64,000 nt of DNA. Source: Escherichia phage ime. The notes below the pieces were generated by a model that was given only the letters and a program-made list of their open reading frames with translations, was not told the origin of the DNA and ran no database searches. Location of the stretch: the sequence record MN850576.1, one strand, 5' to 3'. Position 1 is the first letter of the stretch. The number at the start of each line of letters is the position of its first letter. Positions 5,436 through 49,906 of this stretch are shown here, piece by piece. Position numbers and translations under genes: made by a program.

Positions 5436-5446
5436 TATTTATTATT

Positions 5447-5521: not shown

Positions 5522-5522
5522 A

Positions 5523-5598: not shown

Positions 5599-5603
5599 AA
5601 AAA

Positions 5604-6092: not shown

Positions 6093-6096
6093 AATT

Positions 6097-34060: not shown

Positions 34061-35110
34061 ATGAATTTAACACCTCGCAGCACCATGGTACACGGCATGA
34101 AAGAAAAACAGAACGGTTTCGAACCTATGAGTAATAAAATGTTTGGTATGCCGGGCGGTATCATGGAAACATACAGCTACCCAACACCTGTTGTTGACCA
34201 CGTTCTTTATATCGACGATTTGGAGGACCTGCAGGATCATATGTCTCGTCTGCAGACGATCCGTATGGCTCAGCCGGAAGAAAGCATTCGTGTGATCATC
34301 AATAGCCCTGGTGGTTGCGTGCACATTGCAATGGCCTATCTGCAGGCATTCCGCGAGTCTCAGGCAAGCGTTGTTGCACATGCTGAAGGGATGTGCTGCT
34401 CTGCTGGAACAATCTTATGGCTTGGTTGCAAAGAACGTACTGTGGCTCCGGACACAGAATTTATGTTCCACTACTATCAAGGTGGCACTTATGGTAACGG
34501 TGTTAACATGAATACTCAGGTCAGCTACTGGAAAAAACGTTTTGAACACCTGATCGAAAAATACTACGGTGGGGTGCTGACAGAAGATGAGATAGCATCC
34601 ATCACAGCTGGTGGCGAAGTGTGGTTGGACGGAGAAGAGTTGGCAGCACGCACTGGAGCTATTATTCTGGATGAAGGCAACATACAACGCATCCAGAACG
34701 GACAAAAACCGAAAAAGCTTCTGGCAAAAGGTGATGAAGAAGGCGTGTTAGGTGAAGCAGGTCTTCCGGAGATTCATCAGTGCACATCTTTAGATGAGTT
34801 AGTTCATGCTGTTGAATCTGCAAAAGCGGGTGGTTCGAAAGGTGATGTTCACACTGTGTTCCTGAATCTGCAGATGGAAAGTGGCGAGACCGTCCGAATT
34901 GCCCTGGGTGAGATTACTTCAGAAGATCTGCAGAGATTCTCTGTCGTTGAACTTCAGGATATTCTGTCTCAATTGAAGACTACTCTGAACGGCGGTGAAG
35001 AGGTTAAGGTGAAAGATAAGACTCGCAAGCGTCTTGTGGACAATATTATTAAAACAGCAAAAGAGCTCAATGAAAAAATCCTGGGTGCAGGAATTGTCGA
35101 AGAAGCTTAA
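34061..35110 (+). CDS. ClpP-family serine protease with acidic C-terminal extension (possible prohead protease/scaffold fusion)
   Basis: IRVIINSPGGCVHIAMAYL and GMCCSAGTILWLG match the ClpP INSPGG / GxAASMG active-site region; C-terminal 150 aa acidic. Confidence 0.7.
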   Translation: MNLTPRSTMVHGMKEKQNGFEPMSNKMFGMPGGIMETYSYPTPVVDHVLYIDDLEDLQDHMSRLQTIRMAQPEESIRVIINSPGGCVHIAMAYLQAFRESQASVVAHAEGMCCSAGTILWLGCKERTVAPDTEFMFHYYQGGTYGNGVNMNTQVSYWKKRFEHLIEKYYGGVLTEDEIASITAGGEVWLDGEELAARTGAIILDEGNIQRIQNGQKPKKLLAKGDEEGVLGEAGLPEIHQCTSLDELVHAVESAKAGGSKGDVHTVFLNLQMESGETVRIALGEITSEDLQRFSVVELQDILSQLKTTLNGGEEVKVKDKTRKRLVDNIIKTAKELNEKILGAGIVEEA

Positions 35111-35122
35111 ACATTAATTCTA

Positions 35123-35145
35123 AAGCCCTCTTCGGAGGGCTTTTA
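35123..35145 (+). terminator. rho-independent terminator
   Basis: AGCCCTC-TTCG-GAGGGCT hairpin followed by TTTA, just after stop. Confidence 0.6.
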
Positions 35146-35161
35146 TGATCTGGAGATTTGC

Positions 35162-35695
35162 ATGACTTGTGCTAGAAAACCTGATGAACAACGTAACGCC
35201 TACGATGAGTATGTGACACCGGAGTGGTGTGCAGAAGGGCTGTATGACCTTATTCCGTTCCCAGAAGACTGGACCTACTTAGAGCCTTGCAGGAATAGTG
35301 CCTCAGGTGTGTTCTACTCCCGTATGCCGTTAGGATCTGCATGGGGAGAAATCCAAGAAGGTGTTGACTATCTGAATACAGAATACAACCATGTTGACTG
35401 TATTATCACCAACCCGCCGTACAGCCTGGCTCGTGAGTTTGTGGACAAGGCGTTGAAAGATGCCGACGTAGTTATTATGCTTTTGCGTCTTAATTTTCTG
35501 GAAAGCAAGGCCAGATTTGAATGGTGGCTTGATAATGCACCTACCACTGTGATCACAATATCTAAGCGTCCGTCATTCCAATCTAATGGTAGAACGGATG
35601 GGCAGGCATATGCATATTTTGTATGGGACAAGAAAAACCGTCTAGACTTGCCGCCATTTATGTGGTTGGCACCACCAGAGGCAGACTTGAAATGA
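35162..35695 (+). CDS. N6-adenine DNA methyltransferase (small, NPPY-type)
   Basis: DCIITNPPYS catalytic motif; 177 aa. Confidence 0.6.
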   Translation: MTCARKPDEQRNAYDEYVTPEWCAEGLYDLIPFPEDWTYLEPCRNSASGVFYSRMPLGSAWGEIQEGVDYLNTEYNHVDCIITNPPYSLAREFVDKALKDADVVIMLLRLNFLESKARFEWWLDNAPTTVITISKRPSFQSNGRTDGQAYAYFVWDKKNRLDLPPFMWLAPPEADLK

Positions 35696-35976
35696 AAATG
35701 AGTGCTAAGGACAAGTTGCACCAGTTAGCGCTAAAACGTCCTGTAACGCTTCCTGACGAGCTTAACTCTATTTATGATGCGATTGTTGGGGAGATACAAA
35801 ATAAAGCGTTAGCAGGCTTTCTGGGATGTGGATTTTCGATAAATCTCCCATCACACCTCTCAGACTACTTCCCACACATTGTTGGGGATTTGAGGGCAGG
35901 AGGTCTGCAGGTGGATGTTGTTGGCATCTCTCCGGAGAAAAATAACACAGTTGCCTACTTGACAGTGACCTGGTAG
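35692..35976 (+). CDS. hypothetical protein
   Basis: Met 35692 overlapping upstream stop (ATGA); ORF track start 35623 trimmed. Confidence 0.4.
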   Translation: MKMSAKDKLHQLALKRPVTLPDELNSIYDAIVGEIQNKALAGFLGCGFSINLPSHLSDYFPHIVGDLRAGGLQVDVVGISPEKNNTVAYLTVTW

Positions 35977-36011
35977 TAGTGTATTTTGTTTTCAACAAGA
36001 GGGGGCCATTT

Positions 36012-36251
36012 ATGTACAAGTCATTCTCAATCTACTCAAGACAGGCGAAACACTACACAGAGATCCTGATCACTCAGAAAAAGTCTGTAGAAGGTGAGTG
36101 GGAGTATCACCATAAAATGTTGCGTCCAGATTGGGTTTTTGATAGACTTATTGCTATGATCCCTCTTGGAGAAGTATACCCTCTGACAGGTCATAGGGAT
36201 GCTTGGGATTTAATTGATTACATAGATTCATTTAAGGAGCCTAGATTATGA
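36012..36251 (+). CDS. hypothetical protein
   Basis: Met 36012 after GAGGGGG. Confidence 0.4.
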   Translation: MYKSFSIYSRQAKHYTEILITQKKSVEGEWEYHHKMLRPDWVFDRLIAMIPLGEVYPLTGHRDAWDLIDYIDSFKEPRL

Positions 36252-36646
36252 AGATTGAGATTACTAAAGAAGGTAAGAAAGTGTCCGGCAACTATGCAAC
36301 AGTAATTCGGGATTTAATGTTTGAAGCCACCAAGATCGGTACATCTAAAGTTGGTCAAACTGTTAGTGTGAAAAGTAATATCGCCACAGGAGAGAAGGTA
36401 TTCATTGTGGTCAAAGGGCAGGATCCCGTGGAAGGAACAGTGGGCCGAGGTGGCTACCTGTGCATTTCTGAAGAGCCGCGTATGTTAGTGGCTGACGCTA
36501 CTATGGGTGGGAAACGTGTGTGCGAGGCGGATGAGGTAATGATTATCCAACCTGTTGATCCAGATGACCCAGCAACTTGGGTGGTAGGAAATGAAATCTT
36601 CTCTTTAGAAGAGTTATCCTTCCCAGCACCGCGCTCTGTTCAGTAA
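36248..36646 (+). CDS. hypothetical protein
   Basis: 132-aa ORF, ATGA-coupled. Confidence 0.45.
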   Translation: MKIEITKEGKKVSGNYATVIRDLMFEATKIGTSKVGQTVSVKSNIATGEKVFIVVKGQDPVEGTVGRGGYLCISEEPRMLVADATMGGKRVCEADEVMIIQPVDPDDPATWVVGNEIFSLEELSFPAPRSVQ

Positions 36647-36683
36647 TAATTTATCTTACCAGGGACGGTAGGTAGGAGGTAGC

Positions 36684-36917
36684 ATGAAAGTTAAATTTCT
36701 TACAGATTTAGGGTACCCTTCCTTGGTTGACTGTGTTGGTAAAATTGTGGAAGCAAAACGGCTATCTGCAAACGAGAATGTTGTCCTGGTTAAAGGGAAT
36801 GATTTACTAGCTGCAGGTGCAGAGTCTGGCAGGATCTCTCCTGATTATATGTATTACCTATCTTTAAGTAATCTGCCAGAGCGAGGCGGTAAAGGCCTTG
36901 AAGTTGTGGAGGAGTGA
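36684..36917 (+). CDS. small acidic protein, paralog family A
   Basis: Strong SD AGGAGG; MKVKFL...VLVKGNDLLAAGAES...LEVVEE shares N-terminal, central VKG-DL-AAGA and acidic C-terminal patterns with 40329, 40546, 42418, 42686. Confidence 0.5.
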   Translation: MKVKFLTDLGYPSLVDCVGKIVEAKRLSANENVVLVKGNDLLAAGAESGRISPDYMYYLSLSNLPERGGKGLEVVEE

Positions 36918-36922
36918 CAGGT

Positions 36923-37447
36923 ATGCTTCTGATTAACTGGGAAGACCTCTATGGGGACAAAGACCCTGTTGCGTTTGTTGATCGTAGGTGGAGATATACT
37001 GAAGAACAACTGGCGGCAAAAAATTTAACTGCAAAACGCAGAAAGATCATCCAGTGCAAGTACAAATACGCACAGTTCGCTGCAAAAGTGTCTCCACAAA
37101 TCGAGAGCTTTGTGCTTAAATTGTATGACGAGTACCTCAAATTCAAATTGGATTTTGTGCAGGTGTACCGTGCACAGGTACGACCAGATACCAACATATG
37201 TAGATGGAAGGTTGTTTGTGAAGGTAAAGATTTGCCGCTCAGCTTGACAATTGAGTGGCGTTATGGGTATCATGAGTGTGGTCTGTATGATATTTGGGAT
37301 GTCATTGTAGATCCTGCTAAGCATCTGAACACAGAGGAGCTGGAATATATCAATAAGGTTATTCTCGATATGTTTTTCAGCTACACACATGAAAACTCTG
37401 AGAAAGAACGGGATAATTTTCTTGACACCCTCAGCGACCATTTGTAG
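36923..37447 (+). CDS. hypothetical protein
   Basis: ATG 36923 after GGAGGAG. Confidence 0.45.
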   Translation: MLLINWEDLYGDKDPVAFVDRRWRYTEEQLAAKNLTAKRRKIIQCKYKYAQFAAKVSPQIESFVLKLYDEYLKFKLDFVQVYRAQVRPDTNICRWKVVCEGKDLPLSLTIEWRYGYHECGLYDIWDVIVDPAKHLNTEELEYINKVILDMFFSYTHENSEKERDNFLDTLSDHL

Positions 37448-37477
37448 TGTACAATTTAACCTACAAAGGGAGGACCA

Positions 37478-37705
37478 ATGAGTATAAATGTTGTGCTAAT
37501 AGCTTACCTGGTAATGTCCGTTATAACAGCGGTATTCTTGACAGGTGTATGCATCGTGTCCAGACGAAGGGTGAAGTTTGATGATTTTATCACCATCATC
37601 ACTGCTGCACCTTTTTGGCCTGTTGTTATCTTCATCGTAATAATGTGCCTAGTTGATTACTACAAGAATATCAGGAAGGAGAGTAGGGATGGAGACCGCA
37701 CCTAA
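37478..37705 (+). CDS. small membrane protein (two predicted TM helices)
   Basis: SD AGGGAGGA; hydrophobic segments VVLIAYLVMSVITAVFLTGVCIV and AAPFWPVVIFIVIMCLV. Confidence 0.45.
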   Translation: MSINVVLIAYLVMSVITAVFLTGVCIVSRRRVKFDDFITIITAAPFWPVVIFIVIMCLVDYYKNIRKESRDGDRT

Positions 37706-37841
37706 AACTATCTATACTGTTCTTAAAGAGATTGCGTTCTACGCAGATCTTAGCCAGGCACCTTTATGGGAAAAGAGCATGTATTTAAAATGGTGCGTTA
37801 ATTTAGGGAGACCTTCCAGTGTTTCAAGCCATGTTTATTGA
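37689..37841 (+). CDS. hypothetical small protein
   Basis: Met 37689 after GGAAGGAG; overlaps end of previous gene. Confidence 0.3.
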   Translation: METAPKTIYTVLKEIAFYADLSQAPLWEKSMYLKWCVNLGRPSSVSSHVY

Positions 37842-37924
37842 GATGCTATCTGGGATATTGTTACTGGTAGCCATCTTAGGTGGTGCAGTTCTGATGTATA
37901 ACTATCTTGAAAAAGGAGACAGCA

Positions 37925-38110
37925 ATGGCAAAAAATAAATCTTTAGAGCAGGCTGAAAACCTTCTCCACGAGCTGGTAAAGGAGTGGAAAGTTGAATACT
38001 CAGATTTTAATGCACGAGAGGGTGAAGATTATTGGCCTACGGAGCGCTCAGAGGGCGAATGGTATCAAGATTTCATAGAGTGGTTATATCAGACGTGCGA
38101 TGAGGGGTGA
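37925..38110 (+). CDS. hypothetical small acidic protein
   Basis: Met 37925 after AAAGGAGA. Confidence 0.35.
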   Translation: MAKNKSLEQAENLLHELVKEWKVEYSDFNAREGEDYWPTERSEGEWYQDFIEWLYQTCDEG

Positions 38111-38568
38111 CGATGTTTGTTAAATATGTAAAAACGTGCCTCAACAATCTTGGTAGAGAGCATTGGTACACCTTGCTTGAAAAAGGAGAAATTTTAACAA
38201 AATCTGGAAAGATAACTTTAATACCCTTGGACGATAAAGACCCGTCACTACTTATCATAGATGATTACGTTACAGGTGTGTCGTACGAGGTCTCTGTGGA
38301 GAGGTTAATACGCAGATCTGGAGGTCCTTATGACCGAAGAGAGTATGTTTTCGATTCTATTACAGAGAAGGAAGATCCGTCTCTAATGTTTAGGATGGTA
38401 ATCAGGGATATGAAATCATCTATAAATAGGATCGTAAAGGACATTAAGGAACCTTTTAGAGTAAAAGTTAAGAAGTTTTTCGATTCTAAGATTAACATAC
38501 TCGCCGTTGCACTAGGTGTAGTTCAACTTCTGTTAATTTTGCACTATTTTGGACTACTATTTAAGTAG
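38107..38568 (+). CDS. hypothetical protein with C-terminal TM anchor
   Basis: 153-aa ORF, ATGA-coupled; C-terminal hydrophobic LAVALGVVQLLLILHYFGLLF. Confidence 0.45.
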   Translation: MTMFVKYVKTCLNNLGREHWYTLLEKGEILTKSGKITLIPLDDKDPSLLIIDDYVTGVSYEVSVERLIRRSGGPYDRREYVFDSITEKEDPSLMFRMVIRDMKSSINRIVKDIKEPFRVKVKKFFDSKINILAVALGVVQLLLILHYFGLLFK

Positions 38569-38630
38569 TGGTTGAGATATGGCACAAAGGATGTGCCATA
38601 GTGAAATAAACTAAGAAAGAGGTAGAGAGA

Positions 38631-38978
38631 ATGCCAAAGATTAAAACGTTATTAATGTGGGTAGCTGTTTTAGCTTTTATAGGGTACTGGACTTGGGAAA
38701 CTGAATTAAAAGATATCGGATATACCAGTCTTGAGAGCAAGGCGTGCATTGGTATAACCGATGCATTCAGGCAAAATGCTATGGATCACGAATGTGTCGA
38801 TGCAGACATAGATGATAAACTGTCTAAGGACAAAGACTTCTACCACGGGTATGCTTTGCTTGACAGTGGGGACACTGTAGAGTTCTGGTCGTGGTTTCGT
38901 GAAGATGGAACAATAAAAACAGCAGTAAAAATCTCCAACAAAGAGTTAATGCTGTTGCAGCAGAAGGAGGTTCAATGA
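38631..38978 (+). CDS. hypothetical protein with N-terminal TM/signal segment
   Basis: SD AAGAGG; N-terminal LLMWVAVLAFIGYW. Confidence 0.45.
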   Translation: MPKIKTLLMWVAVLAFIGYWTWETELKDIGYTSLESKACIGITDAFRQNAMDHECVDADIDDKLSKDKDFYHGYALLDSGDTVEFWSWFREDGTIKTAVKISNKELMLLQQKEVQ

Positions 38979-39262
38979 TCTGGATATCCTATGCGGATGG
39001 CACCATGCTGTATACTGCGGGTACCCGATACGAAGTTCAGGAGAACGATAAAAAATTTATCGTAAGAACATTTGACAAGGACGACAACCTTTTGCTAGAA
39101 TTGACTTACAAGGTTGGAGAGGTATCCAATATCCAATTGGATTGTGGTCATAAAGATAACCCACTCAAAAAACCTGGAATAGGCAAGGCTTCAGAAGAAC
39201 GTTTGTCTCGTATTGCAGAAAGCGTTTCTACACAAAAATCTAAGAAGGGGACTAGAAAATGA
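38975..39262 (+). CDS. hypothetical protein
   Basis: 95-aa coupled ORF. Confidence 0.4.
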   Translation: MIWISYADGTMLYTAGTRYEVQENDKKFIVRTFDKDDNLLLELTYKVGEVSNIQLDCGHKDNPLKKPGIGKASEERLSRIAESVSTQKSKKGTRK

Positions 39263-39453
39263 AAAACTTACGTTTTAACACTTATTACTACAACACATTG
39301 AATGATTTGTATTATATTGTTCGAAGTAAAAGTCCTGAAACAGTCCTATTCTGCCGCGAACCTTTCAAAGGGGAGGAAGTAGAGTCTGAGATGAATGTTA
39401 GCCAGATCACCTCTTTGTTGCTCTCAGGTGCAATGGAAGAAGCAATATTCTAA
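39259..39453 (+). CDS. hypothetical protein
   Basis: 64-aa coupled ORF. Confidence 0.4.
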   Translation: MKNLRFNTYYYNTLNDLYYIVRSKSPETVLFCREPFKGEEVESEMNVSQITSLLLSGAMEEAIF

Positions 39454-39470
39454 ACCAGGCGGGGGGTTTT

Positions 39471-39656
39471 ATGAAGCACTATTGCCTGTCTGGTAGAATG
39501 GGTGCAGATTGTGATTGGGTTTTCTTAAAACTTGTCAGCATTCGAGAGTTCATCCCAGAGGAAGAGCAAGAAAGCGAGCTGATGTCATGGATCAACCATT
39601 ACGGTAACACTTTTCGGCATGTTAAGGTAGAAGAGTTGCCAAGCGAGGCTGATTGA
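39471..39656 (+). CDS. hypothetical protein
   Basis: 61-aa ORF. Confidence 0.35.
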   Translation: MKHYCLSGRMGADCDWVFLKLVSIREFIPEEEQESELMSWINHYGNTFRHVKVEELPSEAD

Positions 39657-39658
39657 CT

Positions 39659-39748
39659 ATGATTGCATCAATATTAACGTTTATGGGTGGCGTGGCATTC
39701 GGATTCATTGTTTGCCTGTTTATAGTGATTATGTCTATGCGAGGCTGA
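39659..39748 (+). CDS. hydrophobic micro-peptide, 29 aa
   Basis: ATG 39659 overlapping upstream stop; MIASILTFMGGVAFGFIVCLFIVIMSMRG; below ORF-track cut-off. Confidence 0.3.
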   Translation: MIASILTFMGGVAFGFIVCLFIVIMSMRG

Positions 39749-39751
39749 ATT

Positions 39752-40048
39752 ATGAAACTTTTTGAGTGGTTTAAAAAGTTTAAATATAAAGCTGTAGCCA
39801 TCGTGCCGTGGTCCATTCAGTGGGTTGATGAAGGTGGTCTACCGATACCTGGTGACAAAGATACTGGGTACTGGATTATGATGGAGAACGGGTTTGGAAA
39901 GCGAAAGTATACGTGCACAAACTCTACTCGATCTGCACTTAATAGAGTTCCTGGTTACAAACTTATGGTTGTGTGGAAAATGTCAGGCGTGCCTCCAGCC
40001 AATGCTCAATTTCTTACTGACAATCCGACCACGGTAGAGGGAGATTGA
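39752..40048 (+). CDS. hypothetical protein
   Basis: 98-aa ORF. Confidence 0.4.
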   Translation: MKLFEWFKKFKYKAVAIVPWSIQWVDEGGLPIPGDKDTGYWIMMENGFGKRKYTCTNSTRSALNRVPGYKLMVVWKMSGVPPANAQFLTDNPTTVEGD

Positions 40049-40332
40049 TAATGAAAAAGATTAACAGTAGTGAAGTAGAGTTTAAACTTGTCGGAAAAGG
40101 CACTTACTGGGAAGTTCGTCAAAAGGTATATTTGTTCGGTATTATTCCCTACTGGTCTAAATTCTACTGGGGAGCTAACGAGTGGGGAAGATACGCCACC
40201 AAATCAATGGCACTTATTGGTATAGCAGAGTACATTGCAGCCCGAGATAGGGTTGGAACCACTTATTACTACACTGCTGACGATATTCGTAACAGTGTTT
40301 ACATCCCACAACCGCCTGAGGGAGACCGTTGA
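40045..40332 (+). CDS. hypothetical protein
   Basis: 95-aa coupled ORF. Confidence 0.4.
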   Translation: MIMKKINSSEVEFKLVGKGTYWEVRQKVYLFGIIPYWSKFYWGANEWGRYATKSMALIGIAEYIAARDRVGTTYYYTADDIRNSVYIPQPPEGDR

Positions 40333-40556
40333 TGAAAGTTAAAGTTTTAGATTCAAGCTTCTATATTGGTCAGGAGCCCTTAGTGGGGAAAGTGTTTACC
40401 GCTATCCCTAACGAAGATTATCCTGACCTTTTAAAAATAAAAGGTGCAGATCTTATTTCCGCTGGTGCATCTCAGGACTGCTTTGACAGCCAGTGGACCT
40501 ACAACTTTGCCCTTGGTGAGGATGTAGAGATAGTGGAGGACGAGAATGAAGGTTAA
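40329..40556 (+). CDS. small acidic protein, paralog family A
   Basis: MMKVKVLDSSFYIGQEPLVGKV...LLKIKGADLISAGAS...VEIVEDENEG; first gene of duplicated cassette copy 1. Confidence 0.5.
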   Translation: MMKVKVLDSSFYIGQEPLVGKVFTAIPNEDYPDLLKIKGADLISAGASQDCFDSQWTYNFALGEDVEIVEDENEG

Positions 40557-40800
40557 AATTCTTGATTCTAACGTCTACTTGGGACAATCCTTCCTGAAGG
40601 GAAAGGTCGTTCCTGCGGTATACTTTGAAGGGTTGCCGTGGGATGATCCTGTGCGGCAACATCGCAGTTATGTAGGCCACAACGTGGTGTTTATCTTGGG
40701 ATCAGACCTGATCGCTGCTGGTGCACCGGAATATTATTTCGGGGAAGAATCCTATTATGCCTTTGGGGCAGGGTCAGATGCAGAGATTGTAGAGCTGTGA
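40546..40800 (+). CDS. small acidic protein, paralog family A
   Basis: MKVKILDSNVYLGQSFLKGKV...VVFILGSDLIAAGAPE...AEIVEL; second gene of cassette copy 1. Confidence 0.5.
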   Translation: MKVKILDSNVYLGQSFLKGKVVPAVYFEGLPWDDPVRQHRSYVGHNVVFILGSDLIAAGAPEYYFGEESYYAFGAGSDAEIVEL

Positions 40801-40812
40801 TGGGTAACCGTT

Positions 40813-41211
40813 GTGAAAAATAAACTGTTCAAAGTTACAATGAAAATTCGCGGAGCTTGGAGCGTAAAGCAAGGGCGTATCCCAGAATTTGAGAAAGACT
40901 TCTACGTAGTCTCCACCTCGGAGGAGGCTGCATGCTGGCAGGCTGGCTATGCATATGCAAGAACCTGGTACGAAGGATACCAGACTGGTGGCTATGACGG
41001 AGAAATTATCAGCAAGGGTGTAGAAGAAATTAATGTGTTGACAAGTGAAAAAGTTTTTGTTATAGTGCATCCAGATTCCAGAGTGAAGCATTACTGGAAT
41101 GCCAGAACAAAAACTTGGACACCGTTTGCAGATTCTGCTACACCACTTTTAAACCAGAAAGCTCTTGACTCTGTCCCGAGCTATGGGGTTGTTGAAGAAA
41201 AGCTAAACTGA
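40813..41211 (+). CDS. hypothetical protein, paralog family B
   Basis: VFVIVHPDSRVKHYWNARTKTWTPFADSATPLL aligns with 43018 gene (KFVMRHPHSNIAYYWDVLNNEWTPDLQKATVLTPFL); third gene of cassette copy 1. Confidence 0.5.
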   Translation: MKNKLFKVTMKIRGAWSVKQGRIPEFEKDFYVVSTSEEAACWQAGYAYARTWYEGYQTGGYDGEIISKGVEEINVLTSEKVFVIVHPDSRVKHYWNARTKTWTPFADSATPLLNQKALDSVPSYGVVEEKLN

Positions 41212-41228
41212 AACGGTGAGGTACTAAC

Positions 41229-41519
41229 ATGATTGATTTAGTTCTAGACACTGATAACACCGGAGCGTTTAAAAAGGATGGTGTAACAAGCGTTGACCAA
41301 TCATTCCCTGCCAAGATTGACTCAAAATGGACCTACAAGTTTGATGGAGAGATCTTCGCAAATGATGAGAAGGTTGTAGATGCTGCAGCCATTTTGAACG
41401 CTCTAGGGTACGACCCTGTGAATTCTTTGATCAAGGATCCTGTTGAGTTTGCAGAGTATGTTCGAAAAATGGCAGATCTTGCTGTGGATATTTTAAAAAC
41501 TATCGACAACAATCTGTAA
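41229..41519 (+). CDS. hypothetical protein
   Basis: 96-aa ORF. Confidence 0.4.
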   Translation: MIDLVLDTDNTGAFKKDGVTSVDQSFPAKIDSKWTYKFDGEIFANDEKVVDAAAILNALGYDPVNSLIKDPVEFAEYVRKMADLAVDILKTIDNNL

Positions 41520-41524
41520 AAACT

Positions 41525-41553
41525 GTTGACACAACGCTTCAGATTTAGTATCA
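41525..41553 (+). promoter_or_regulatory. sigma70-like promoter (TTGACA-N17-TATCAT)
   Basis: -35 41525-41530, -10 41548-41553; directly upstream of HPF-like gene. Confidence 0.55.
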
Positions 41554-41601
41554 TTGTTTTCAAAGAGGGTTTGGTTCCCTCTTCTTTAAAAGGAACACGT
41601 T

Positions 41602-41919
41602 ATGCAAATTGAAATCACTGGCAACGTAGAAATCACTGAAGGTATGGTGTCTTTCATTTCCCACAAAATGTCTAAGCTGGAGCGTTTGCATCCCTCTGCC
41701 AACTATGCACGTGTGAGTGTAAAAGTTGAAAATGATCACCAGGAAGTTATGGCGTTCATTTTTGACAATTCTGGAAAAGAAGTTATTGCCAAAGCTAAAG
41801 GCAGTGATGCTTACGAGGCAACTGACCGTATGGTAGATGTTGCAGCACGTCAACTGGCTAAATGCGGTGGAAAGAAAGGTAAGGGGAAAGGCAAAGTAAA
41901 GATTGACTTTGGAGAATGA
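41602..41919 (+). CDS. hpf: ribosome hibernation promoting factor / RaiA (YfiA) family homolog
   Basis: MQIEITGNVEITEGMVSFISHKMSKLERL ... VSVKVEND ... AKAKGSDAYEATDRMVDVAARQLAK parallels E. coli HPF/RaiA along its whole length (from memory); own promoter; Lys/Gly-rich tail. Confidence 0.8.
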   Translation: MQIEITGNVEITEGMVSFISHKMSKLERLHPSANYARVSVKVENDHQEVMAFIFDNSGKEVIAKAKGSDAYEATDRMVDVAARQLAKCGGKKGKGKGKVKIDFGE

Positions 41920-41928
41920 GGTGCTACA

Positions 41929-42030
41929 ATGGGTGTGATCAAGAAATTAGTCCCAAATGTAGAGATTGCATGCTTTGAAATTATGTTTGCAATCGCAGTT
42001 GTAGTTAATGTGTTAGGTTACGGCTATTAA
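41929..42030 (+). CDS. hydrophobic micro-peptide, 33 aa
   Basis: ATG 41929 after GAGGTG; MGVIKKLVPNVEIACFEIMFAIAVVVNVLGYGY; below ORF-track cut-off. Confidence 0.3.
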   Translation: MGVIKKLVPNVEIACFEIMFAIAVVVNVLGYGY

Positions 42031-42056
42031 TATCAAATAATTGAGGAGACCTCTAA

Positions 42057-42326
42057 ATGAAAATTAAATTATTCAAAACTGAGCTGGCAGACAAAAACTG
42101 TGGACTGGTTGAAGGTATGATTGTCGAAGCACAACCAGTTGACTATATGAAGGTGGTTCGTGATGCCCTGGGTGAAGGTTTTGATCTGATGGAGCCAGCT
42201 CTGCGAGAAGATGTTATCGAGATGGCTAAAAAGCACACACCTGAAGGCATGGTGGTGTTTGTTGCACCGGGTAACGGAGAAGAGTTGATTGTAACTCCGG
42301 ATGTGTATGAGATTGTAGAGGAATAA
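42057..42326 (+). CDS. small acidic protein (distantly family A-like)
   Basis: MKIKLFKTELADKNCGLVEGMIVEA...EIVEE; N- and C-terminal patterns as in family A. Confidence 0.4.
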   Translation: MKIKLFKTELADKNCGLVEGMIVEAQPVDYMKVVRDALGEGFDLMEPALREDVIEMAKKHTPEGMVVFVAPGNGEELIVTPDVYEIVEE

Positions 42327-42417
42327 TCCTGCTTGGATTAGCATACTTCCTCGATAAGGAAGGTTTGTAATTATTTGTGGGAAAGGAATCCCAATCTCTT
42401 ACCAGAGGTGATACTAT

Positions 42418-42681
42418 ATGATTGTTTATTTTAAAACTTCAGGTGGATACCCTGATTCTCAAAGCTTGATCGGAAAAACGTGCACAGCATACTCACCTCT
42501 TGATGAGGAGGTAGGCGATATTCTACGAAATATGTATCGGATTGATCCTCAAGAAGCTTTTGATCAAAACCTTGTATTTGTCAAGGGCTCAGACATGAAG
42601 TCTTTGGGAGCATTCCCTGAAGCAGATGATGATGCCGTTTATTCGTTCATGACCCCTTTTGAAGCTATGGTTGTTGGGTGA
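42418..42681 (+). CDS. small acidic protein, paralog family A
   Basis: ...YPDSQSLIGKTCTA...LVFVKGSDMKSLGAFPE; first gene of cassette copy 2. Confidence 0.45.
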   Translation: MIVYFKTSGGYPDSQSLIGKTCTAYSPLDEEVGDILRNMYRIDPQEAFDQNLVFVKGSDMKSLGAFPEADDDAVYSFMTPFEAMVVG

Positions 42682-42685
42682 TAAT

Positions 42686-43018
42686 ATGAAAGTACGCTTT
42701 ATTGGTGAAACAATTCCTGTGCATCTCCGGTCGCCTGAGGATTCTGCAGATCTTGCATCTCAAAAGGCGAGAGGTTATGATAAGAAAGTAACCTCAACTG
42801 ATGTAGTGCTTGAGGCTACTAGTCTACCTGACCCTGCTGCATTCTTTAATCATTATGGGTACTATTTCAGCAATCTGATGAATATCGGTGAGCTTGTGTT
42901 TATTAGTGGTGGAGAGATTGTTAGCAAGCTTGGCGGCGATCCGGATGTCTTTCATGAAACCTGTCCTTTTGCATTTGTGGTAGGTTCAGATGTGGAAGTT
43001 ATTGAGGAGGTGCGGTAA
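42686..43018 (+). CDS. small acidic protein, paralog family A
   Basis: MKVRFIGE...LVFISGGEIVSKLGGDPD...VEVIEEVR; start set at Met 42686; second gene of cassette copy 2. Confidence 0.45.
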   Translation: MKVRFIGETIPVHLRSPEDSADLASQKARGYDKKVTSTDVVLEATSLPDPAAFFNHYGYYFSNLMNIGELVFISGGEIVSKLGGDPDVFHETCPFAFVVGSDVEVIEEVR

Positions 43019-43413
43019 TGGTAAGCCTATACCGTGTTGAGTATAGCTCAGATACTGTATACAACGTAAGAAGCAAAGATCGCAGCGACAGAGTGCAAGA
43101 AATGTATGTTCTTGCCGACAGTCCGTTATCTGCAGCGTTCAAGGCAGGGGCTCTTGCATCTCGTTGGAAATTTGAAGGCGGATCTTTCTATGAAGAAACC
43201 CTTGAAGATTCTGTTGTTATTTCTTCTGTAGAGGTTTCAGATGACTACGAAGGGAAAAAGTTCGTAATGCGGCACCCACACAGCAACATTGCGTACTACT
43301 GGGATGTTCTGAACAACGAGTGGACCCCAGATCTTCAGAAGGCTACTGTGCTAACACCGTTTTTGGCAGATAAGTTCCCACCAGAAGGTAATTTATCCGC
43401 ACTGTTTCAGTAA
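43018..43413 (+). CDS. hypothetical protein, paralog family B
   Basis: Paralog of 40813-41211 (shared HP-S---YW------WTP and A-KAG-A--W-EG segments); third gene of cassette copy 2. Confidence 0.5.
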   Translation: MVSLYRVEYSSDTVYNVRSKDRSDRVQEMYVLADSPLSAAFKAGALASRWKFEGGSFYEETLEDSVVISSVEVSDDYEGKKFVMRHPHSNIAYYWDVLNNEWTPDLQKATVLTPFLADKFPPEGNLSALFQ

Positions 43414-43489
43414 TTTTCTTGCACACAGGTGTTGACAACGCCAACCCTGTGTGAAATAATACCTTCATCTTAACAAGACAGGAGACCGA

Positions 43490-43750
43490 TTGATGAAGAT
43501 TAAATTGAAAAACCTTGAAACGGCAGAGATTCAGGACGGTGTTGATTTCCGTTCTAAAGATGGTGACATCTTAGAGGTAAATATTCCAACCTACGAGCTG
43601 ATTAAAGGTTTTGGCAACGTTCCGGAAGAGGATATTACAGAAATTCTTATGATGTTGATTCTTGACGGAACTGTGTTTGTAGGTGAAGGTGAGAACGCTA
43701 TTGCAATCCCAGGCCATTTTTATGAAGTAGTTGACGAAGAGGTGCTGTAA
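43490..43750 (+). CDS. small acidic protein
   Basis: MMKIKLKNLE...EVVDEEVL; preceded by TTGACA-type promoter at about 43432. Confidence 0.4.
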   Translation: MMKIKLKNLETAEIQDGVDFRSKDGDILEVNIPTYELIKGFGNVPEEDITEILMMLILDGTVFVGEGENAIAIPGHFYEVVDEEVL

Positions 43751-44101
43751 ATGAAAGTAGAAATTACCGGTTTTGATGTGAATGTGGTTCCGGAAGATAT
43801 TTTAGCTAAACTTCCAGAAGGTTTTGGTAACGGCGTTGTGGTGGATGCTGTTCCTCCTACCAAAGACATTCTGCTGCAGTATGGTGTAGCAGAGGAAGAT
43901 GTCGATAAAGTTCTTACAATGATGGCAATCGATCGTGTTGTCGTTGTTAAAGGTCTCGATAATTTTGAGAGTGATCCCCTGATTATTCGTGGAGATGACT
44001 ACAAAATCATCGATAATGAAGGCCAAGAGTTCTATGAACCTTGTGCAGAAGATATTCTTAACTTATTACTGGAAGCAGGCACCGAAGAGGAGGACGAATA
44101 A
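43751..44101 (+). CDS. small acidic protein (family A-like)
   Basis: MKVEITG...VVVVKGLDNFESDP...; 116 aa. Confidence 0.4.
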   Translation: MKVEITGFDVNVVPEDILAKLPEGFGNGVVVDAVPPTKDILLQYGVAEEDVDKVLTMMAIDRVVVVKGLDNFESDPLIIRGDDYKIIDNEGQEFYEPCAEDILNLLLEAGTEEEDE

Positions 44102-44430
44102 TGAAGATTGACCCGTTACTGAAGGCTCGTGCAGAAAAAGCGTACACTATTAAGCTGACTAATCTGGTTCCTACTTGTCATCCGGATGTAGGTTGGCCCG
44201 AAGGTCTGGTAGAGGGAACTGTAACAGCTGCATACCTTCCTAACATCAAGTACCTTATGGAGATCTTAGAGATGGATGAGGAAACTGCAGAACAGTTCCA
44301 GTTAGATATGAAACAGAGTGGGACTCTGGTTATTCACGGGTGGTATAATACTAAAGATGCAGAAGACCCTCTGGTAACTTCTAATCTGGCATATGAAATC
44401 TTAGGGCCTTTGAACCTGGAGGAAGACTAA
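44101..44430 (+). CDS. hypothetical acidic protein
   Basis: 109-aa coupled ORF. Confidence 0.4.
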   Translation: MKIDPLLKARAEKAYTIKLTNLVPTCHPDVGWPEGLVEGTVTAAYLPNIKYLMEILEMDEETAEQFQLDMKQSGTLVIHGWYNTKDAEDPLVTSNLAYEILGPLNLEED

Positions 44431-44717
44431 TGAAAGATCTGGTTAAGATTAAGATTAAAGATACCAATGGAGAACTCAGCCATTTTGGAATTAATGATGG
44501 TGACGAGCTGATCGCACACCTGCCTACTAAGGAGGTTGTAAGCAAAGCAGTTGCCGGAGAAGAAGCTGCAATGCAGGCTGCAGGTGTGGATGAAAACTAT
44601 GTAGCTATGTGCATGTGCCGAGATCAGGTTGTTCTGTATAAAGCGTATCGACCAAACGGAGCCACGGAGTGGCTTGTATTCCGACCCGAAGGATATGAAA
44701 TCTTAGAGGCACTATGA
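44430..44717 (+). CDS. hypothetical protein
   Basis: 95-aa coupled ORF. Confidence 0.4.
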   Translation: MKDLVKIKIKDTNGELSHFGINDGDELIAHLPTKEVVSKAVAGEEAAMQAAGVDENYVAMCMCRDQVVLYKAYRPNGATEWLVFRPEGYEILEAL

Positions 44718-44806
44718 TAAATCTTGCCAAGGTTGCAACGGCACTGTTAATTATTTGCTGGTCTGTAACCTTAACACTGTGTCTTGTATTTCAGTGAGGT
44801 GCTTGT

Positions 44807-45070
44807 ATGAACATCCTGATGTGGGTTATAGCAGTGGCGTTTGTTGCATGTTTTTGCTGCTGGGTTGCGGTGAGGATTTCTGTAGCTACCCTTCGGAAGT
44901 TGGGGTTCTCAGAATGGGATATTAATATCCTTTCTTTTCGCAATGAAACAATCTCAGCCGCCCTGCTTTGTAAGAAATTCAAGTGGGAACCTTGTGAGGT
45001 CATGAGCTATCTAAGAACAGGCGATATCCCTGAAAGATTTAAAAAAGTTCTTGACGGCAAGGATAAATGA
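44807..45070 (+). CDS. membrane protein (N-terminal TM helix)
   Basis: N-terminal ILMWVIAVAFVACFCCWVAV. Confidence 0.4.
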   Translation: MNILMWVIAVAFVACFCCWVAVRISVATLRKLGFSEWDINILSFRNETISAALLCKKFKWEPCEVMSYLRTGDIPERFKKVLDGKDK

Positions 45071-45225
45071 CAGTATAGTGACTAACAAGAGGTGAGGAGT
45101 GACTGATTTTACTGAAGCTTTAATGATGGCCTTGTCTGTTTTAGCGCTATCGGTGTGTTTTGGGGCGTTATTCACATCTCTGGTTAAAGTTTTACATACA
45201 GTATTATTACCCAAGGAGCGCAGTA

Positions 45226-45477
45226 ATGACGAAGATTGACTTGAATGCTGGCGACCATGTTGTTGTCAAATGCATCGGAGATTATCTTGGATTCACAATC
45301 GGTAATACTTACGAGGCGGTAGTGGCGAAGGTTTATCATGATAAAGTCCTCAGTCTTGTATTTGACTGCGATGATGATGGAGATGACCGATACGTCTGTG
45401 AGGTGCTGGCACGAGACGACAGTGAAGACCAGAAATTCTTGGTTATTGAACTGAACGGTATTTTTGTAGAACGTTAA
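45226..45477 (+). CDS. hypothetical protein
   Basis: Met 45226 after AAGGAG; ORF-track start 45160 trimmed. Confidence 0.4.
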   Translation: MTKIDLNAGDHVVVKCIGDYLGFTIGNTYEAVVAKVYHDKVLSLVFDCDDDGDDRYVCEVLARDDSEDQKFLVIELNGIFVER

Positions 45478-45505
45478 TTTAAAACAACATAAGGGGACTC
45501 TTACT

Positions 45506-45811
45506 ATGGCTAAATCTAAAGTTGAACTGTTCACCTCTCTTCCTTCTGACACTGCAGAGCGTGATCGCCTTCGCAAGACAATCGAAGAACTGGTGGAACT
45601 CCAACTTCAGATTAAAGATCTGAAAGATGCCATTAAGGATATCATTCTCGTTGAGAAGCAGGATCACCTGTATTCTCCTAAATTCATCAAATCTCTGGTG
45701 GCTACCGAGTTCGATATTCGCTATGAGGCTGAAAAACGTCGAGCTAAAATCGAAGAAGAGGTTGAGCACATGTCCGAGGCAGACATTCTGTTCAAACGCT
45801 CTGTAGAATAA
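45506..45811 (+). CDS. hypothetical coiled-coil protein
   Basis: ATG after AAGGGGA; heptad-like charged sequence. Confidence 0.45.
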   Translation: MAKSKVELFTSLPSDTAERDRLRKTIEELVELQLQIKDLKDAIKDIILVEKQDHLYSPKFIKSLVATEFDIRYEAEKRRAKIEEEVEHMSEADILFKRSVE

Positions 45812-45819
45812 TGACAAAA

Positions 45820-45843
45820 AGAGGGGCCCAAGCCCCTCTTTTT
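45820..45843 (+). terminator. rho-independent terminator
   Basis: AGAGGGGC-CCAA-GCCCCTCT hairpin followed by TTTTT. Confidence 0.65.
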
Positions 45844-45866
45844 ACTATCTATGAAGGAGATTTGAG

Positions 45867-46199
45867 ATGGGTATACCGATCACTGTAAAAGAATTGAATG
45901 AACGTGATGCAGGTGGTCTATGGCCTGCACGAAAAATACGCTGCATCCGTATGAAAGAGAACCTTGAGCATCTTGAGCAACAGAAACGGATTGAGGTTGG
46001 TGATATTTTCGAAGTATTTTATTCTGATCGCCGTAACTGGGAAACCATTCAACCTTCCGGTTTTGTTCTTGCTAAGCTTGACACTGGAGAAGTGATTGTT
46101 CCTGGGTTGGATATTGTCTTCGAAATTATCCAGGAGTGGGATCCGGACAAGATTAGATACGAAGAGCTATTCGGTGAAGGTATTATCAAACCTGTGTGA
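45867..46199 (+). CDS. hypothetical protein
   Basis: 110-aa ORF after AAGGAG. Confidence 0.45.
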   Translation: MGIPITVKELNERDAGGLWPARKIRCIRMKENLEHLEQQKRIEVGDIFEVFYSDRRNWETIQPSGFVLAKLDTGEVIVPGLDIVFEIIQEWDPDKIRYEELFGEGIIKPV

Positions 46200-46207
46200 G
46201 GTGGATT

Positions 46208-46507
46208 ATGTCTACAAAGGCGGCTAAATACTCCTACATGCCATCAACCTCTGCAGAGGTAGACTTTAGTTTCGATGTGTTTCCACTGTTTGAGGTGGTT
46301 CTGGCATACCCAACAATACTATCTACTCCTGAATCACTTGTGCCTGTTAAGTTGCAGAACGCTATGCATTCCATGCACTACAACAACAAATGTAGGCACA
46401 GATGGTGTCAGGACGAGGAAAAAGATTTGGATAGTTTGAGAGATTTTGACAGTCACCTTTTGACACCTTTCAGCTACTCCAACCTTGATAAGCCCTCGTG
46501 GGTATAG
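46208..46507 (+). CDS. hypothetical protein
   Basis: Met 46208 after GAGGTGG. Confidence 0.4.
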   Translation: MSTKAAKYSYMPSTSAEVDFSFDVFPLFEVVLAYPTILSTPESLVPVKLQNAMHSMHYNNKCRHRWCQDEEKDLDSLRDFDSHLLTPFSYSNLDKPSWV

Positions 46508-46531
46508 CAAAATATCAAATTTAAGACACCT

Positions 46532-46558
46532 AGGACGCTCTGTGGCGTCCTTTTCTTT
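46532..46558 (+). terminator. rho-independent terminator
   Basis: AGGACGC-TCTGTG-GCGTCC(T) hairpin followed by TTTTCTTT. Confidence 0.6.
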
Positions 46559-46720
46559 ATCTGGTGCACGATTGCATACCTTGGGCAGTTAATCTCATTA
46601 CAGAGCGTTTAAGAGCTCCCTACAAACAACTCCATATTTCGAGCGTAGCGAGAACGCACGTCCGTTTTGACCCAAATCACCATACGCTCGGATTTTAACC
46701 AAACCCTCGCGGCGTTTCTG

Positions 46721-46749
46721 TTGACACATTACCGATCCAGTGATAGTAT
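46721..46749 (+). promoter_or_regulatory. sigma70-like promoter (TTGACA-N17-TAGTAT)
   Basis: -35 46721-46726, -10 46744-46749. Confidence 0.5.
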
Positions 46750-46781
46750 CCACACATAGTTTGTAGAATATGGAGTACACA

Positions 46782-46871
46782 ATGAGAACATTGTCCGAAG
46801 TTTTAGTGGTGATCCTGATGATCATTACGTCCATAGCGGCTGTTGCCGGAATACTCACGGGTGGAACATGA
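46782..46871 (+). CDS. hydrophobic micro-peptide, 29 aa
   Basis: ATG 46782 after GGAG; MRTLSEVLVVILMIITSIAAVAGILTGGT; ATGA-coupled to next ORF. Confidence 0.35.
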   Translation: MRTLSEVLVVILMIITSIAAVAGILTGGT

Positions 46872-47080
46872 TAAACACACATGCATCTGAAGAGACATCC
46901 AAAGGAGTGACTATATGTCCCTTGGCTGAGCCAGTGAAAGAGGAAAACTTAGATTCTGAAGATTCTCCATCTTCGCTCCAGGTAGATCCTGAGGCTGATG
47001 ACCTAACGTGGGAAGACATCGTAGATATCTGGTTCTCTATTATGCCTGAGCACGAAGAGTTCAGGGGTGGTAGACTATGA
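46868..47080 (+). CDS. hypothetical acidic protein
   Basis: 70-aa ORF. Confidence 0.4.
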   Translation: MINTHASEETSKGVTICPLAEPVKEENLDSEDSPSSLQVDPEADDLTWEDIVDIWFSIMPEHEEFRGGRL

Positions 47081-47201
47081 AGCACCGAGCCCACACAGGT
47101 TCCTCATGCTAAAGCATGGCCTGAAGAGGCAAACGTGCATAATTCCTGTGCATCGGAACGTATAAAACCCTGTTCACACTCTCATTTCCAGAGGAGATTT
47201 C

Positions 47202-47417
47202 ATGAAGATAGAAATATTTGGTGGAGCTGACAACACTCGTGGCCTGATTTACCTTGAATTCGATGAATCATACCTGCCAGAGGTGTTAAATATGGACTCT
47301 GTTGCTGATGCTTTGGGAGTAAGTCCTAAAGATCTCTACTCTGGTGCTGAGATTGATGGTTGGGAGGAGACCATGAACATTGATTTCAGTGAAGTAGGTG
47401 ATGAACCACTGGACTGA
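47202..47417 (+). CDS. small acidic protein (family A-like N-terminus MKIEIFGG)
   Basis: 71-aa ORF after GGAGA. Confidence 0.4.
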   Translation: MKIEIFGGADNTRGLIYLEFDESYLPEVLNMDSVADALGVSPKDLYSGAEIDGWEETMNIDFSEVGDEPLD

Positions 47418-47546
47418 CACACAATTAGCTGCCAGGCTAAAGTGCTGGAAGCGCACCTATAACACATCTTTCAACTAAATTTCCTACCACCACAATCACT
47501 TACCTCCCACACATGACTGTTTGCTTGTTTAGTGAGCAGTCATGCC

Positions 47547-47574
47547 TTGACATTCTTGCCTATCCTGATAAAAT
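47547..47574 (+). promoter_or_regulatory. sigma70-like promoter (TTGACA-N16-TAAAAT) facing an ORF-free region
   Basis: -35 47547-47552, -10 47569-47574; no ORF of 60 aa or more downstream on plus strand for over 2 kb. Confidence 0.45.
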
Positions 47575-47579
47575 TAAGT

Positions 47580-47860
47580 TCTTCTCTTTTCTTTTACCGA
47601 GTAATTCGGGTTTTCTGTTCTCTTCGGTTTGAAGGGGTATGGAGATACACCTGAGTGAACAGGGTGAACAACCGAACCATTGGCTATGGCATTAGCATGG
47701 CGAAGCGGACGGGTGACGAAAGAGGGGCCGGAGGACACCAGTCACTGCCATATGGTATATGGGTGATAACCTGAAGAGTCTGAATAAGTGTTTAAGTACC
47801 AGTCAGAGGAAAAGGTGAATGGTAGCCGAAGGGGGAGGGGGGTTTCTTGTATCTTTAATT
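47580..47860 (+). ncRNA. candidate non-coding transcript (unclassified)
   Basis: Promoter-proximal ORF-free stretch with locally elevated GC and G-rich tract (GAAGGGGGAGGGGGG) followed by TTTCTTGTATCTTT. Confidence 0.2.
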
Positions 47861-48912
47861 TGTATATTATGTATACACTTGTAAACCAATCTCATCTGAA
47901 TCTGTTTACCACACAAAGCGGATAGAGACAAATATCACCTATTAAACTTGAATTATTTATAGAAAATACCACAACACCACTTAAGTCTTTGATTTTACAC
48001 ACAAATCCTACAGATATTCAACCTCCATATTTAACATACTTGTAACATATTCCATACTCTACCTGTCTGATCAATCTACCCAACCACATCCTTCATATTT
48101 TCCCTGTCTGTACCACCCCTGCCCCGCCGGGAGTCCCGTCATATCTGGCTTTCCAGTAAATAGCACACCCACAAATATCATTGCCTGAAGAGGGTTTCAT
48201 CCCATAATACATGCCTTACCTGAAGAGCGCTTCATACACCACGTAAATTTTTTAATTGACCTGCAATTTTCCCGTCATGACCCCCCCCCTGCCCCGCCGG
48301 AGAGGTTGGCTTTTCCCACACAGACCTGAAGAGTCAGCCAGAAATATCTGAACAGGTCCAGTTCTGCCTTGTCATGAGCCGTAGCGACTGGAGTGCTGCC
48401 AGGCGGACGGAATGGGAATACTTCTCATTCTTATAATAATTCTCAAATATCGAGGCAGTGAGGCAAATTAATAGGTGAGGCCGTTCACACAGTGGCACAA
48501 CATTTGCAATCTATTTTGTGAGGGTGAATGAGAATACCTATCATTGTGAGAACCTTTATCATTACGGGCAATTTAACATAATACCCATTATGCGCACCAC
48601 TGGCGATACATACAGGGATTGATACCATGAGTTACAGTTTACGCATATAACAATCATATTTCTTACTATTTGTGTGGGATATAGTTAGCAACCAATAGAT
48701 TAGATATTGACCTACAGACTTCCAACCGTCTAGACGTCTAAACGCCCACACACCAAGGGTTATACATACATTACTGAATGTAAACAGGGCCGCAAAAATG
48801 CTACCATACCAGTTTGTAAATTTTTCATGCAGCACTTGACAAAGAGGAGAAAAACTTGTCTGACATAATGTGACCTAACTGACACAACATGACACTTTTA
48901 CACACCTATTAG

Positions 48913-48984
48913 TTTACACACTGGATTGTTTACATTCCTGATTGTTCACATGCTAACCATTTACATGATTGACTGTTTACACAC
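48913..48984. repeat. iteron-like direct repeats (five TTTACA/TTCACA copies, loosely DnaA-box-like)
   Basis: GTTTACACA 48913-48921, TGTTTACAT 48927-48935, TTGTTCACA 48942-48950, ATTTACAT 48959-48966, TGTTTACACA 48975-48984; further copies near 49395-49455. Confidence 0.55.
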
Positions 48985-48993
48985 CGATAATCA

Positions 48994-49861: not shown

Positions 49862-49886
49862 AAAAAGAAAGGGGCCTTTAAGCCCC
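49862..49886 (-). terminator. rho-independent terminator (minus strand)
   Basis: On minus strand GGGGC...GCCCC hairpin followed by TTTCTTTTTG; downstream of gene 49907-50326. Confidence 0.55.
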
Positions 49887-49906
49887 TTGATAATTCAGTT
49901 AAGAAA

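Follow-up and report, generated by a model that had tools for sequence, protein, structure and literature searches.

We report that five small genes of Escherichia phage ime form a true paralog family, as judged by sequence comparison, and that their common phage-specific domain of about 70 residues is predicted to fold as an SH3-like five-stranded beta-barrel. The genes, here called family A (A1-A5), lie in a 64,000-nucleotide stretch of the phage DNA (sequence record MN850576.1), which is the whole stretch analysed and is referred to below as the window. The part that contains them (36-48 kb) shares 99.1% identity with Escherichia phage nomine and 97-99% with about 100 further genomes of Vequintavirus (rV5-like phages), and in those records every gene put forward for the family is annotated as 'hypothetical protein'. 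The rV5 genome paper (PMC3606486) discusses neither the paralogs nor their rV5 counterparts ORF127, ORF140, ORF141, ORF147 and ORF148, and no functional screen covering family A genes was found in the literature searched.

Family A and its predicted fold

The five members, with their rV5 counterparts, are as follows (ORF, open reading frame; HMM, hidden Markov model).

36684..36917, + strand: A1, 77 residues; rV5 ORF127; matches phrog_5009 (E 2.3e-35); leave-one-out HMM E 6.9e-9, rank 1
40332..40556, + strand: A2, 74 residues; rV5 ORF140; shortest form of the domain, used for modelling
40546..40800, + strand: A3, 84 residues; rV5 ORF141; longer insert between strands 2 and 3; hhalign A2-A3 98%
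42418..42681, + strand: A4, 87 residues; rV5 ORF147; insert of 25-27 residues between strands 2 and 3; leave-one-out E 1.7e-6
42686..43018, + strand: A5, 110 residues; rV5 ORF148; most divergent member; leave-one-out E 1.4e-4, rank 1; hhalign A3-A5 91%

A reading of the window made from the sequence alone had proposed these five ORFs as paralogs. A2 begins with an ATG at 40332, the TTG at 40329 being the start of the longest ORF. The proposal was upheld. BLASTP within the local set connected the five proteins in a network with pairwise E-values from 6e-15 to 8e-3 (A2-A3 6e-15, A1-A2 2.5e-6, A2-A5 3.7e-5 and A1-A3 9e-5, with weaker links A3-A5 at 6e-4 and A1-A4 at 1e-3), and jackhmmer started from A1, A2 or A3 against the 470 six-frame ORFs of the window returned exactly A1-A5 and no others. 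For leave-one-out searches, profiles were built from each gene together with a diverged ortholog, and the 1113 six-frame ORFs of the whole genome served as background. Each of A1-A5 ranked first of 1113 (E 1.3e-15 to 1.4e-4), the best non-member had E >= 0.85, and an HMM lacking A5 still recovered A5 at E 4e-7. No sixth copy was found in the whole-genome scan.

The sequence-only reading had named alignment statistics no better than a composition-driven background as the result that would count against the family. Such an artefact, in which the likeness of the five would come from composition and translation signals instead of common descent, has some basis in the surrounding block of 39 genes, where 16 proteins start with MK and 20 have at least two Asp/Glu among the last six residues; it does explain the resemblance of two other ORFs of the region (47202 and 36248), and part of the resemblance to the separate family G described below. 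We nevertheless regard it as practically untenable for the five. In 1000 composition-preserving shuffles per left-out protein, shuffle maxima were 5.7-9.4 bits compared to real scores of 18.5-53.6 bits, and none of the 1000 reached the real score; together with the leave-one-out ranks this rules out a composition-driven background for A1-A5. Besides, no other ORF among the 1113 scored at E < 0.85, and independent relatives from other phages match the same full-length profile.

The proteins are predicted to be soluble, with a grand average of hydropathy of about 0, no hydrophobic leader, isoelectric points (pI) of 4.05-5.07 and net charges of -2 to -10. Their acidity, which had been taken as a family trait, is real but not distinctive, as the small-gene block as a whole has a median pI of 4.84.

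Structure prediction, one of the checks proposed with the original claim, gave a confident small barrel. The AlphaFold2 model of A2, computed from a 17-sequence family alignment, has a mean pLDDT (predicted local distance difference test) of 89.7 and a pTM (predicted template modelling score) of 0.77, with strands at residues 2-5, 21-23, 33-37, 56-61 and 65-69 and a short helix at 38-43. On this predicted model the domain has the five antiparallel strands, superposable on SH3, KOW and PsaE domains, that define the SH3-like small beta-barrel fold class. The three motifs noticed from the sequence also proved real: MKVKxL corresponds to predicted strand 1, VxIKGxDLIxAGA to strand 3 and the short helix, and ExEIVEE to strand 5. 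The other predicted elements are GKVxxA (strand 2), which is followed by a variable insert, and YxF (strand 4). The paralogs differ chiefly in the segment between strands 2 and 3, which has about 8 residues in A1 and A2, about 22 in A3, about 27 in A4, and up to about 50 overall; in A5 further segments are added behind strand 1 and ahead of strand 3.

Foldseek searches of solved structures with the A2 model matched only generic SH3, KOW and PsaE domains, and those of BFVD (predicted viral structures) only unnamed small phage proteins, among them A0A5B9MW73, the A4 ortholog of Shigella phage CM1 (TM-score, template modelling score, 0.81 to the A2 model). Sequence searches of Pfam, NCBIfam and PDB with the five paralogs and distant relatives gave no match, and no Pfam family, SH3 and KOW included, was hit at E <= 1 by any of A1-A5 or the distant relatives.

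Look-alike genes, families G and B, and translation signals

The sequence-only reading had extended the family, on the basis of common termini, to ORFs at 42057, 43490 (start 43493 below), 43751 and 47202. This extension failed. The extended ORFs obtain between -0.6 and 4.0 bits from the family A HMM, and when the first four and last five residues were kept and the remainder shuffled (termini-fixed shuffles), 23-651 of 1000 such sequences did as well as the real one; 42057, at 2.7 bits, does no better than such shuffles. None of 42057, 43493 and 43751 was found by family A profiles at E <= 1 (leave-one-out E >= 1.7), and since the termini-fixed shuffles match the real scores, nothing beyond the termini is detectably common to these three and family A. 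They belong instead, with the previously unlisted 44101 and 44430, to a separate five-member family, family G.

42057..42326, + strand: lone family G copy, 89 residues; leave-one-out G HMM E 1.2e-4, rank 1
43493-43750, 43751-44101, 44101-44430 and 44430-44717, + strand: four family G genes in tandem; leave-one-out E 2e-7 to 4e-5

Every G member ranks first in leave-one-out searches, and hhalign within the family gives 86% for both 43493-43751 and 43751-44101. The tandem genes are translationally coupled. Family G proteins carry net charges of -6 to -21, which makes them very acidic, and their occurrence is limited to Vequintavirus-like contigs. The AlphaFold2 model of 43493 (pLDDT 80.9) has the order strand-strand-helix-helix-strand-strand-strand. 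Two observations were made beside these data. In the rV5 record DQ832317 (contig L026), the ortholog of the G gene 44430 is divided into overlapping ORFs 153 and 154 (101025-101295), which suggests a frameshift or sequencing error in that record. A further protein, P0117, with a DUF7399 N-terminus and a 44101 C-terminus, seems to be a chimera that arose by recombination or in assembly, and was set aside as no functional lead. 47202 and 36248 were rejected as members of either A or G by profile searches, hhalign and shuffles.

Families A and G as one family at the sequence level were rejected by hhalign, HMM cross-searches and termini-fixed shuffles. At the level of fold, the two could be distant homologs built on one barrel, G having acquired a two-helix insert between strands 2 and 3, and the earlier extended list would then be right at that level. 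The element order is alike (strand-strand-strand-helix-strand-strand in A), A4 has a long insert at the same position, both families combine an MK[VI]K start in strand 1 with a YEIVEE-like final strand, and their genes are interleaved in one block. However, the probability that hhalign assigns to an A-G match is 1.9% for the raw alignments and no higher than 3.4% for ortholog-pair profiles, and the alignment is confined to the N-terminus; G members come out of searches with family A HMMs at E >= 1.7, and the scores of G against family A are not above termini-fixed shuffles. The Foldseek/BFVD list for the G model is free of family A orthologs, targets common to both are weak, and the common termini have a translational explanation. 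We therefore consider a single superfamily a doubtful prospect, if still one to be reckoned with.

That explanation comes from the translation signals of the block. The strong Shine-Dalgarno (SD) sequences and translational coupling described in the sequence-only reading were mostly borne out: AGGAGG or GGAGG precedes 36684 and 40546, A2 and A3 overlap by 11 nucleotides, 42418 and 42686 are spaced by 4 nucleotides, and the 42686 stop codon overlaps the start of the following gene. The A3 SD (GGAGG) lies within the C-terminal codons of A2 (tail VEDENEG), the A1 end GTG GAG GAG TGA (VEE*) contains GGAGG for the following gene, and the EEVR*, DEEVL*, EEEDE* and LEED* tails likewise carry the SD of their downstream genes. 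Across the 39-gene block, acidic C-termini occur in 10 of 13 genes where the SD of the next gene lies inside the coding sequence, compared to 10 of 26 otherwise; 10 genes start with MK[VI][KERD]. Since the SD sequences GAGG and GGAGG read as Glu codons, the Glu-rich C-termini are partly a by-product of translational coupling, and the look-alike termini of the extended members are, on this sequence evidence, probably largely translation signals (MK starts and Glu-codon tails). The ExEIVEE strand of family A is nonetheless conserved as part of the predicted fold, in unrelated phages too. MK[VI]K N-termini and acidic C-termini in coupled phage operons, being partly translation signals, are thus no basis for inferring homology.

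A third family, family B, has two members, each placed next to a family A gene.

40813..41211, + strand: B1, 132 residues; phrog_7379; directly downstream of A3
43018..43413, + strand: B2, 131 residues; phrog_7379; start overlaps the A5 stop (TAATG)

B1 and B2 match each other (BLASTP E 2e-8), belong to a PHROG of unknown function and are separate from family A; B1 is missing from L020, a divergent vequinta-like contig, and the family is absent from temperate loci carrying A. A simple A-A-B segmental duplication was tried as the origin of the two clusters and rejected: hhalign gives 98% for A2-A3 and 91% for A3-A5 but 20% for A2-A4 and 13% for A4-A5. Because the A2-A4 and A4-A5 matches are weak, and B is also missing wherever A occurs outside Vequintavirus, duplication of a single unit is no clean fit.

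Distribution, age and genomic setting

Building HMMs and searching other phages, also proposed with the original claim, recovered relatives that are rare and small. HMMER, run exhaustively over 1.84 billion cluster representatives, returned only 37 hits at E <= 1e-3; the relatives are phage or prophage proteins of 63-136 residues, with the consensus MKVKLLNDGGYxGM..VGKVVEA...I.G.ELI.AGA...F....Y.F..G.E.EIVEE; where a source gives a name (E. coli and Morganella), it is 'hypothetical protein' throughout. One long match from this search, P0037 (4388 residues), was rejected as a homolog, its score being the sum of weak matches to a repeated VxFxSGxDIILAG in a giant YDG/MBG-domain protein. By these searches family A is a rare family of enterobacterial phages and prophages. 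Some relatives contain the domain in tandem, three times in P0050 and twice in P0064 and P0054. The contigs of P0040 and P0050 are so short that they say nothing about gene setting. Temperate homologs (P0031 in E. coli, phages mEp044 and MagusPhagus, and IMG/VR loci L006-L016) usually occur in one copy. In the lambda-like mEp044 and MagusPhagus the lone homolog is one of a string of small genes that separate the Q antiterminator from the lysis genes. In prophage-like contigs of IMG/VR it has a PD-(D/E)XK exonuclease and RecT on one side, and NinX, an MT-A70 methylase, an excisionase and an integrase on the other. Since temperate and prophage-like loci hold one copy, apart from three in L006, the five-copy state is a Vequintavirus feature.

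The duplications are old, because the contig L020 (128 kb), which is syntenic, carries orthologs of all five genes at 73, 66, 42, 57 and 55% identity for A1-A5, respectively. The ratios of nonsynonymous to synonymous substitution rates (dN/dS) against phage FV3 (dS 0.13-0.33) are 0.16 for A1, 0.12 for A2, 0.10 for A3, 0.10 for A4 and 0.06 for A5, inside the range of neighbouring genes (0.01-0.16); by this sequence measure each paralog is under purifying selection. The family A region is covered in 115 of 120 related genomes. The paralogs had been called diversified, and with such dN/dS values and such coverage we see no present diversification. There are natural chimeras, P0014 and P0024 joining the N-half of A2 to the C-half of A3 and P0028 a prophage-type N-half to the C-half of A2, and their sequences point to recombination among copies, whether tandem or dispersed.

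For growth on E. coli K-12 a phage of this kind can do without at least A2 and A3. The viable phage EduardKellenberger (Bas59 of the BASEL collection; L021), which plaques on K-12, has a natural deletion of about 4 kb, equivalent to window positions ~37400-41130, that runs from the end of a 'putative glycosidase' gene to just before the 41229 gene, ahead of the gene for the ribosome hibernation factor HPF, and takes out A2, A3, B1 and about 13 other small genes. Siblings of Bas59 (e.g. Bas52) retain all five copies.

The family A genes sit within a block of small, tightly packed genes on the + strand (35600-47420). Directly upstream of it are genes for a ClpP-like protease (349 residues) and an N6-adenine methyltransferase-like protein (34061-35695, + strand), and still further upstream, in related genomes, a gene for a PhoH-like ATPase. 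An HPF homolog, with its own sigma-70-type promoter ahead, is located between the two family A clusters. The features of the block that bear on expression are:

41526..41554, + strand: sigma-70-type promoter-like site, TTGACA-17-TATCAT, 11/12 match, intergenic; P144 in the rV5 record
41602-41919, + strand: HPF homolog (phage-encoded ribosome hibernation factor); Pfam Ribosomal_S30AE E 1.8e-12
43432..43460, + strand: sigma-70-type promoter-like site, TTGACA-17-AATAAT with extended -10 TG, 11/12 match, upstream of the G array; P150 in the rV5 record

Further sigma-70-type sites were found at 33632, 39072 and 47547. In total, 51 promoter-like sites were observed compared to 33.5 +/- 7.3 in shuffles, and the rV5 paper reports 33 host-type promoters (PMC3606486). 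Judging from their consensus, these candidate promoters are consistent with transcription by unmodified host polymerase. No time-course transcriptome of a Vequintavirus was found in the literature searched.

Two regions of the window away from the small-gene block are also worth recording. Positions 47420-49900 (about 2.5 kb) hold few ORFs and coincide with the switch in GC skew and gene orientation. Nested repeats, both direct and inverted, that contain GCAACTAT occur here around 49060-49260, and a 20-nucleotide sequence is repeated exactly at 48994 and 49225; the stretch could serve as a replication origin or be regulatory. The genome map of the rV5 paper shows an ORF-free 'non-coding' box (PMC3606486), which may or may not correspond to 47420-49900. 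Seven tRNA genes (Pro, Met, Thr, Ser, Tyr, Arg) are clustered at 5359-6171 on the - strand, and for a tRNA-like gene of 99 nucleotides at 5604-5702 ARAGORN reads a four-base anticodon, with an Rfam score of just 35.5 bits.

Possible roles of family A and comparison with known systems

The reading we favour, tentatively and at slightly less than an even chance, is that the ancient, constrained and partly dispensable paralogs of family A, with their predicted barrel, serve as early accessory binders of distinct partners. The host polymerase would produce these protein-binding modules early, and each would bind a different partner from host or phage, its specificity determined by the strand 2-3 insert in the manner of the variable loops of SH3-type barrels. 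The adjacent coupled pairs A2/A3 and A4/A5 may act as hetero-oligomers, a proposal made because other phages encode the domain fused two or three times in tandem. Several points weigh against this picture: the partners are hypothetical, the specificity loop is an analogy only, it is only the fused relatives that suggest hetero-oligomers, and for the early timing promoter consensus is the sole indication.

The sequence-only reading saw in these genes an anti-defence or host-takeover arsenal, in which the paralogs would be inhibitors or decoys of different host immune proteins, expanded in an arms race. The early, accessory context is compatible with this idea, as are the small size, acidity and multiple copies of the family in an early-like block, the presence of temperate homologs in an early-left accessory region beside a methyltransferase and a NinX-family gene, and the recombinant chimeras. 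On the other hand, dN/dS values are the same as those of neighbouring genes, copy number is stable, and the five copies predate the split from L020; no sequence match to known host-takeover or anti-defence proteins was found in Pfam, NCBIfam or PDB, nor any fold match to a solved inhibitor. Vequintavirinae are also reported in the BASEL study to be exceptionally susceptible to restriction-modification systems (PMC8594841), which disfavours an effective anti-restriction arsenal and leaves other roles unaffected. Taken together, we consider an anti-defence arsenal unlikely. A role on ribosomes or RNA, with a KOW- or ribosomal-protein-like barrel acting alongside HPF, would fit the position of the HPF gene between the two clusters and a putative L21e-like phage protein listed in BFVD (E 0.13); the negative charge of the proteins is unfavourable for RNA binding, however, and with Pfam KOW giving no match at E <= 1 such a translation or RNA factor seems very improbable.

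A bolder version of the accessory-binder reading would make family A the founding expanded example of a widespread unrecognised phage domain, an SH3-like barrel that includes a GxDLIxAGA helix (at least six PHROGs, absent from Pfam), whose paralogs hetero-oligomerise (A2:A3, A4:A5, perhaps with B partners) and each neutralise a different host factor via the strand 2-3 insert. We rate this whole combination as distinctly unlikely; if true, family A would be a modular inhibitor scaffold common to lytic and temperate enterobacterial phages. What has been gained so far is a family defined by its consensus motifs, a fold predicted with confidence and a distribution that is known, and grouping small 'hypothetical' early phage genes into real families with a fold is a first step to function. 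Bas59, which misses two copies, and siblings such as Bas52 with all five provide a ready genetic handle. Should the proteins prove to bind specific targets, the five paralogs would offer a compact natural set for studying how one scaffold is re-aimed.

Compared with known systems, family A has a predicted barrel fold in common with SH3 domains, the KOW domains of Spt5/NusG and PsaE, with the difference that Pfam profile matches are absent. Alike in size and predicted fold are unnamed BFVD proteins of other lytic enterobacterial phages, for example Citrobacter phage Merlin (A0A0K1LND4), Cronobacter phage CS01 (A0A3B8E0L0) and phage RB49 (Q76ZG7), with TM-scores of 0.7-0.85 and Foldseek E-values of 7e-5 to 4e-2; at an identity of 14-25%, they may be homologs or may have just the fold in common. 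The temperate and prophage homologs are 42-49% identical to A1 over the full length (HMM E 1e-7 to 1e-26) and differ from the Vequintavirus genes in their genomic setting, with no family B or G neighbours. The family A genes are already catalogued, in a well-sequenced genus, as PHROGs of unknown function. In PHROGs v4, A1, A2 (E 1.3e-36) and A3 (E 3.6e-32) match phrog_5009 over the full length, while A4 matches it weakly (1.2e-4) and A5 not at all at E <= 0.01; thus, phrog_5009 membership holds for three of the five, and A4 and A5, the type sequences of phrog_13920 and phrog_13661 (both of unknown function), are tied in by the profiles built here. The distant relatives P0048 and P0065 match phrog_5009, 13367, 7345 and 8603, all of unknown function as well. 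PHROGs divides the five paralogs over three families with no function, fold or cross-link, and the link of A4 and A5 to the other members, together with the predicted fold, is provided here.

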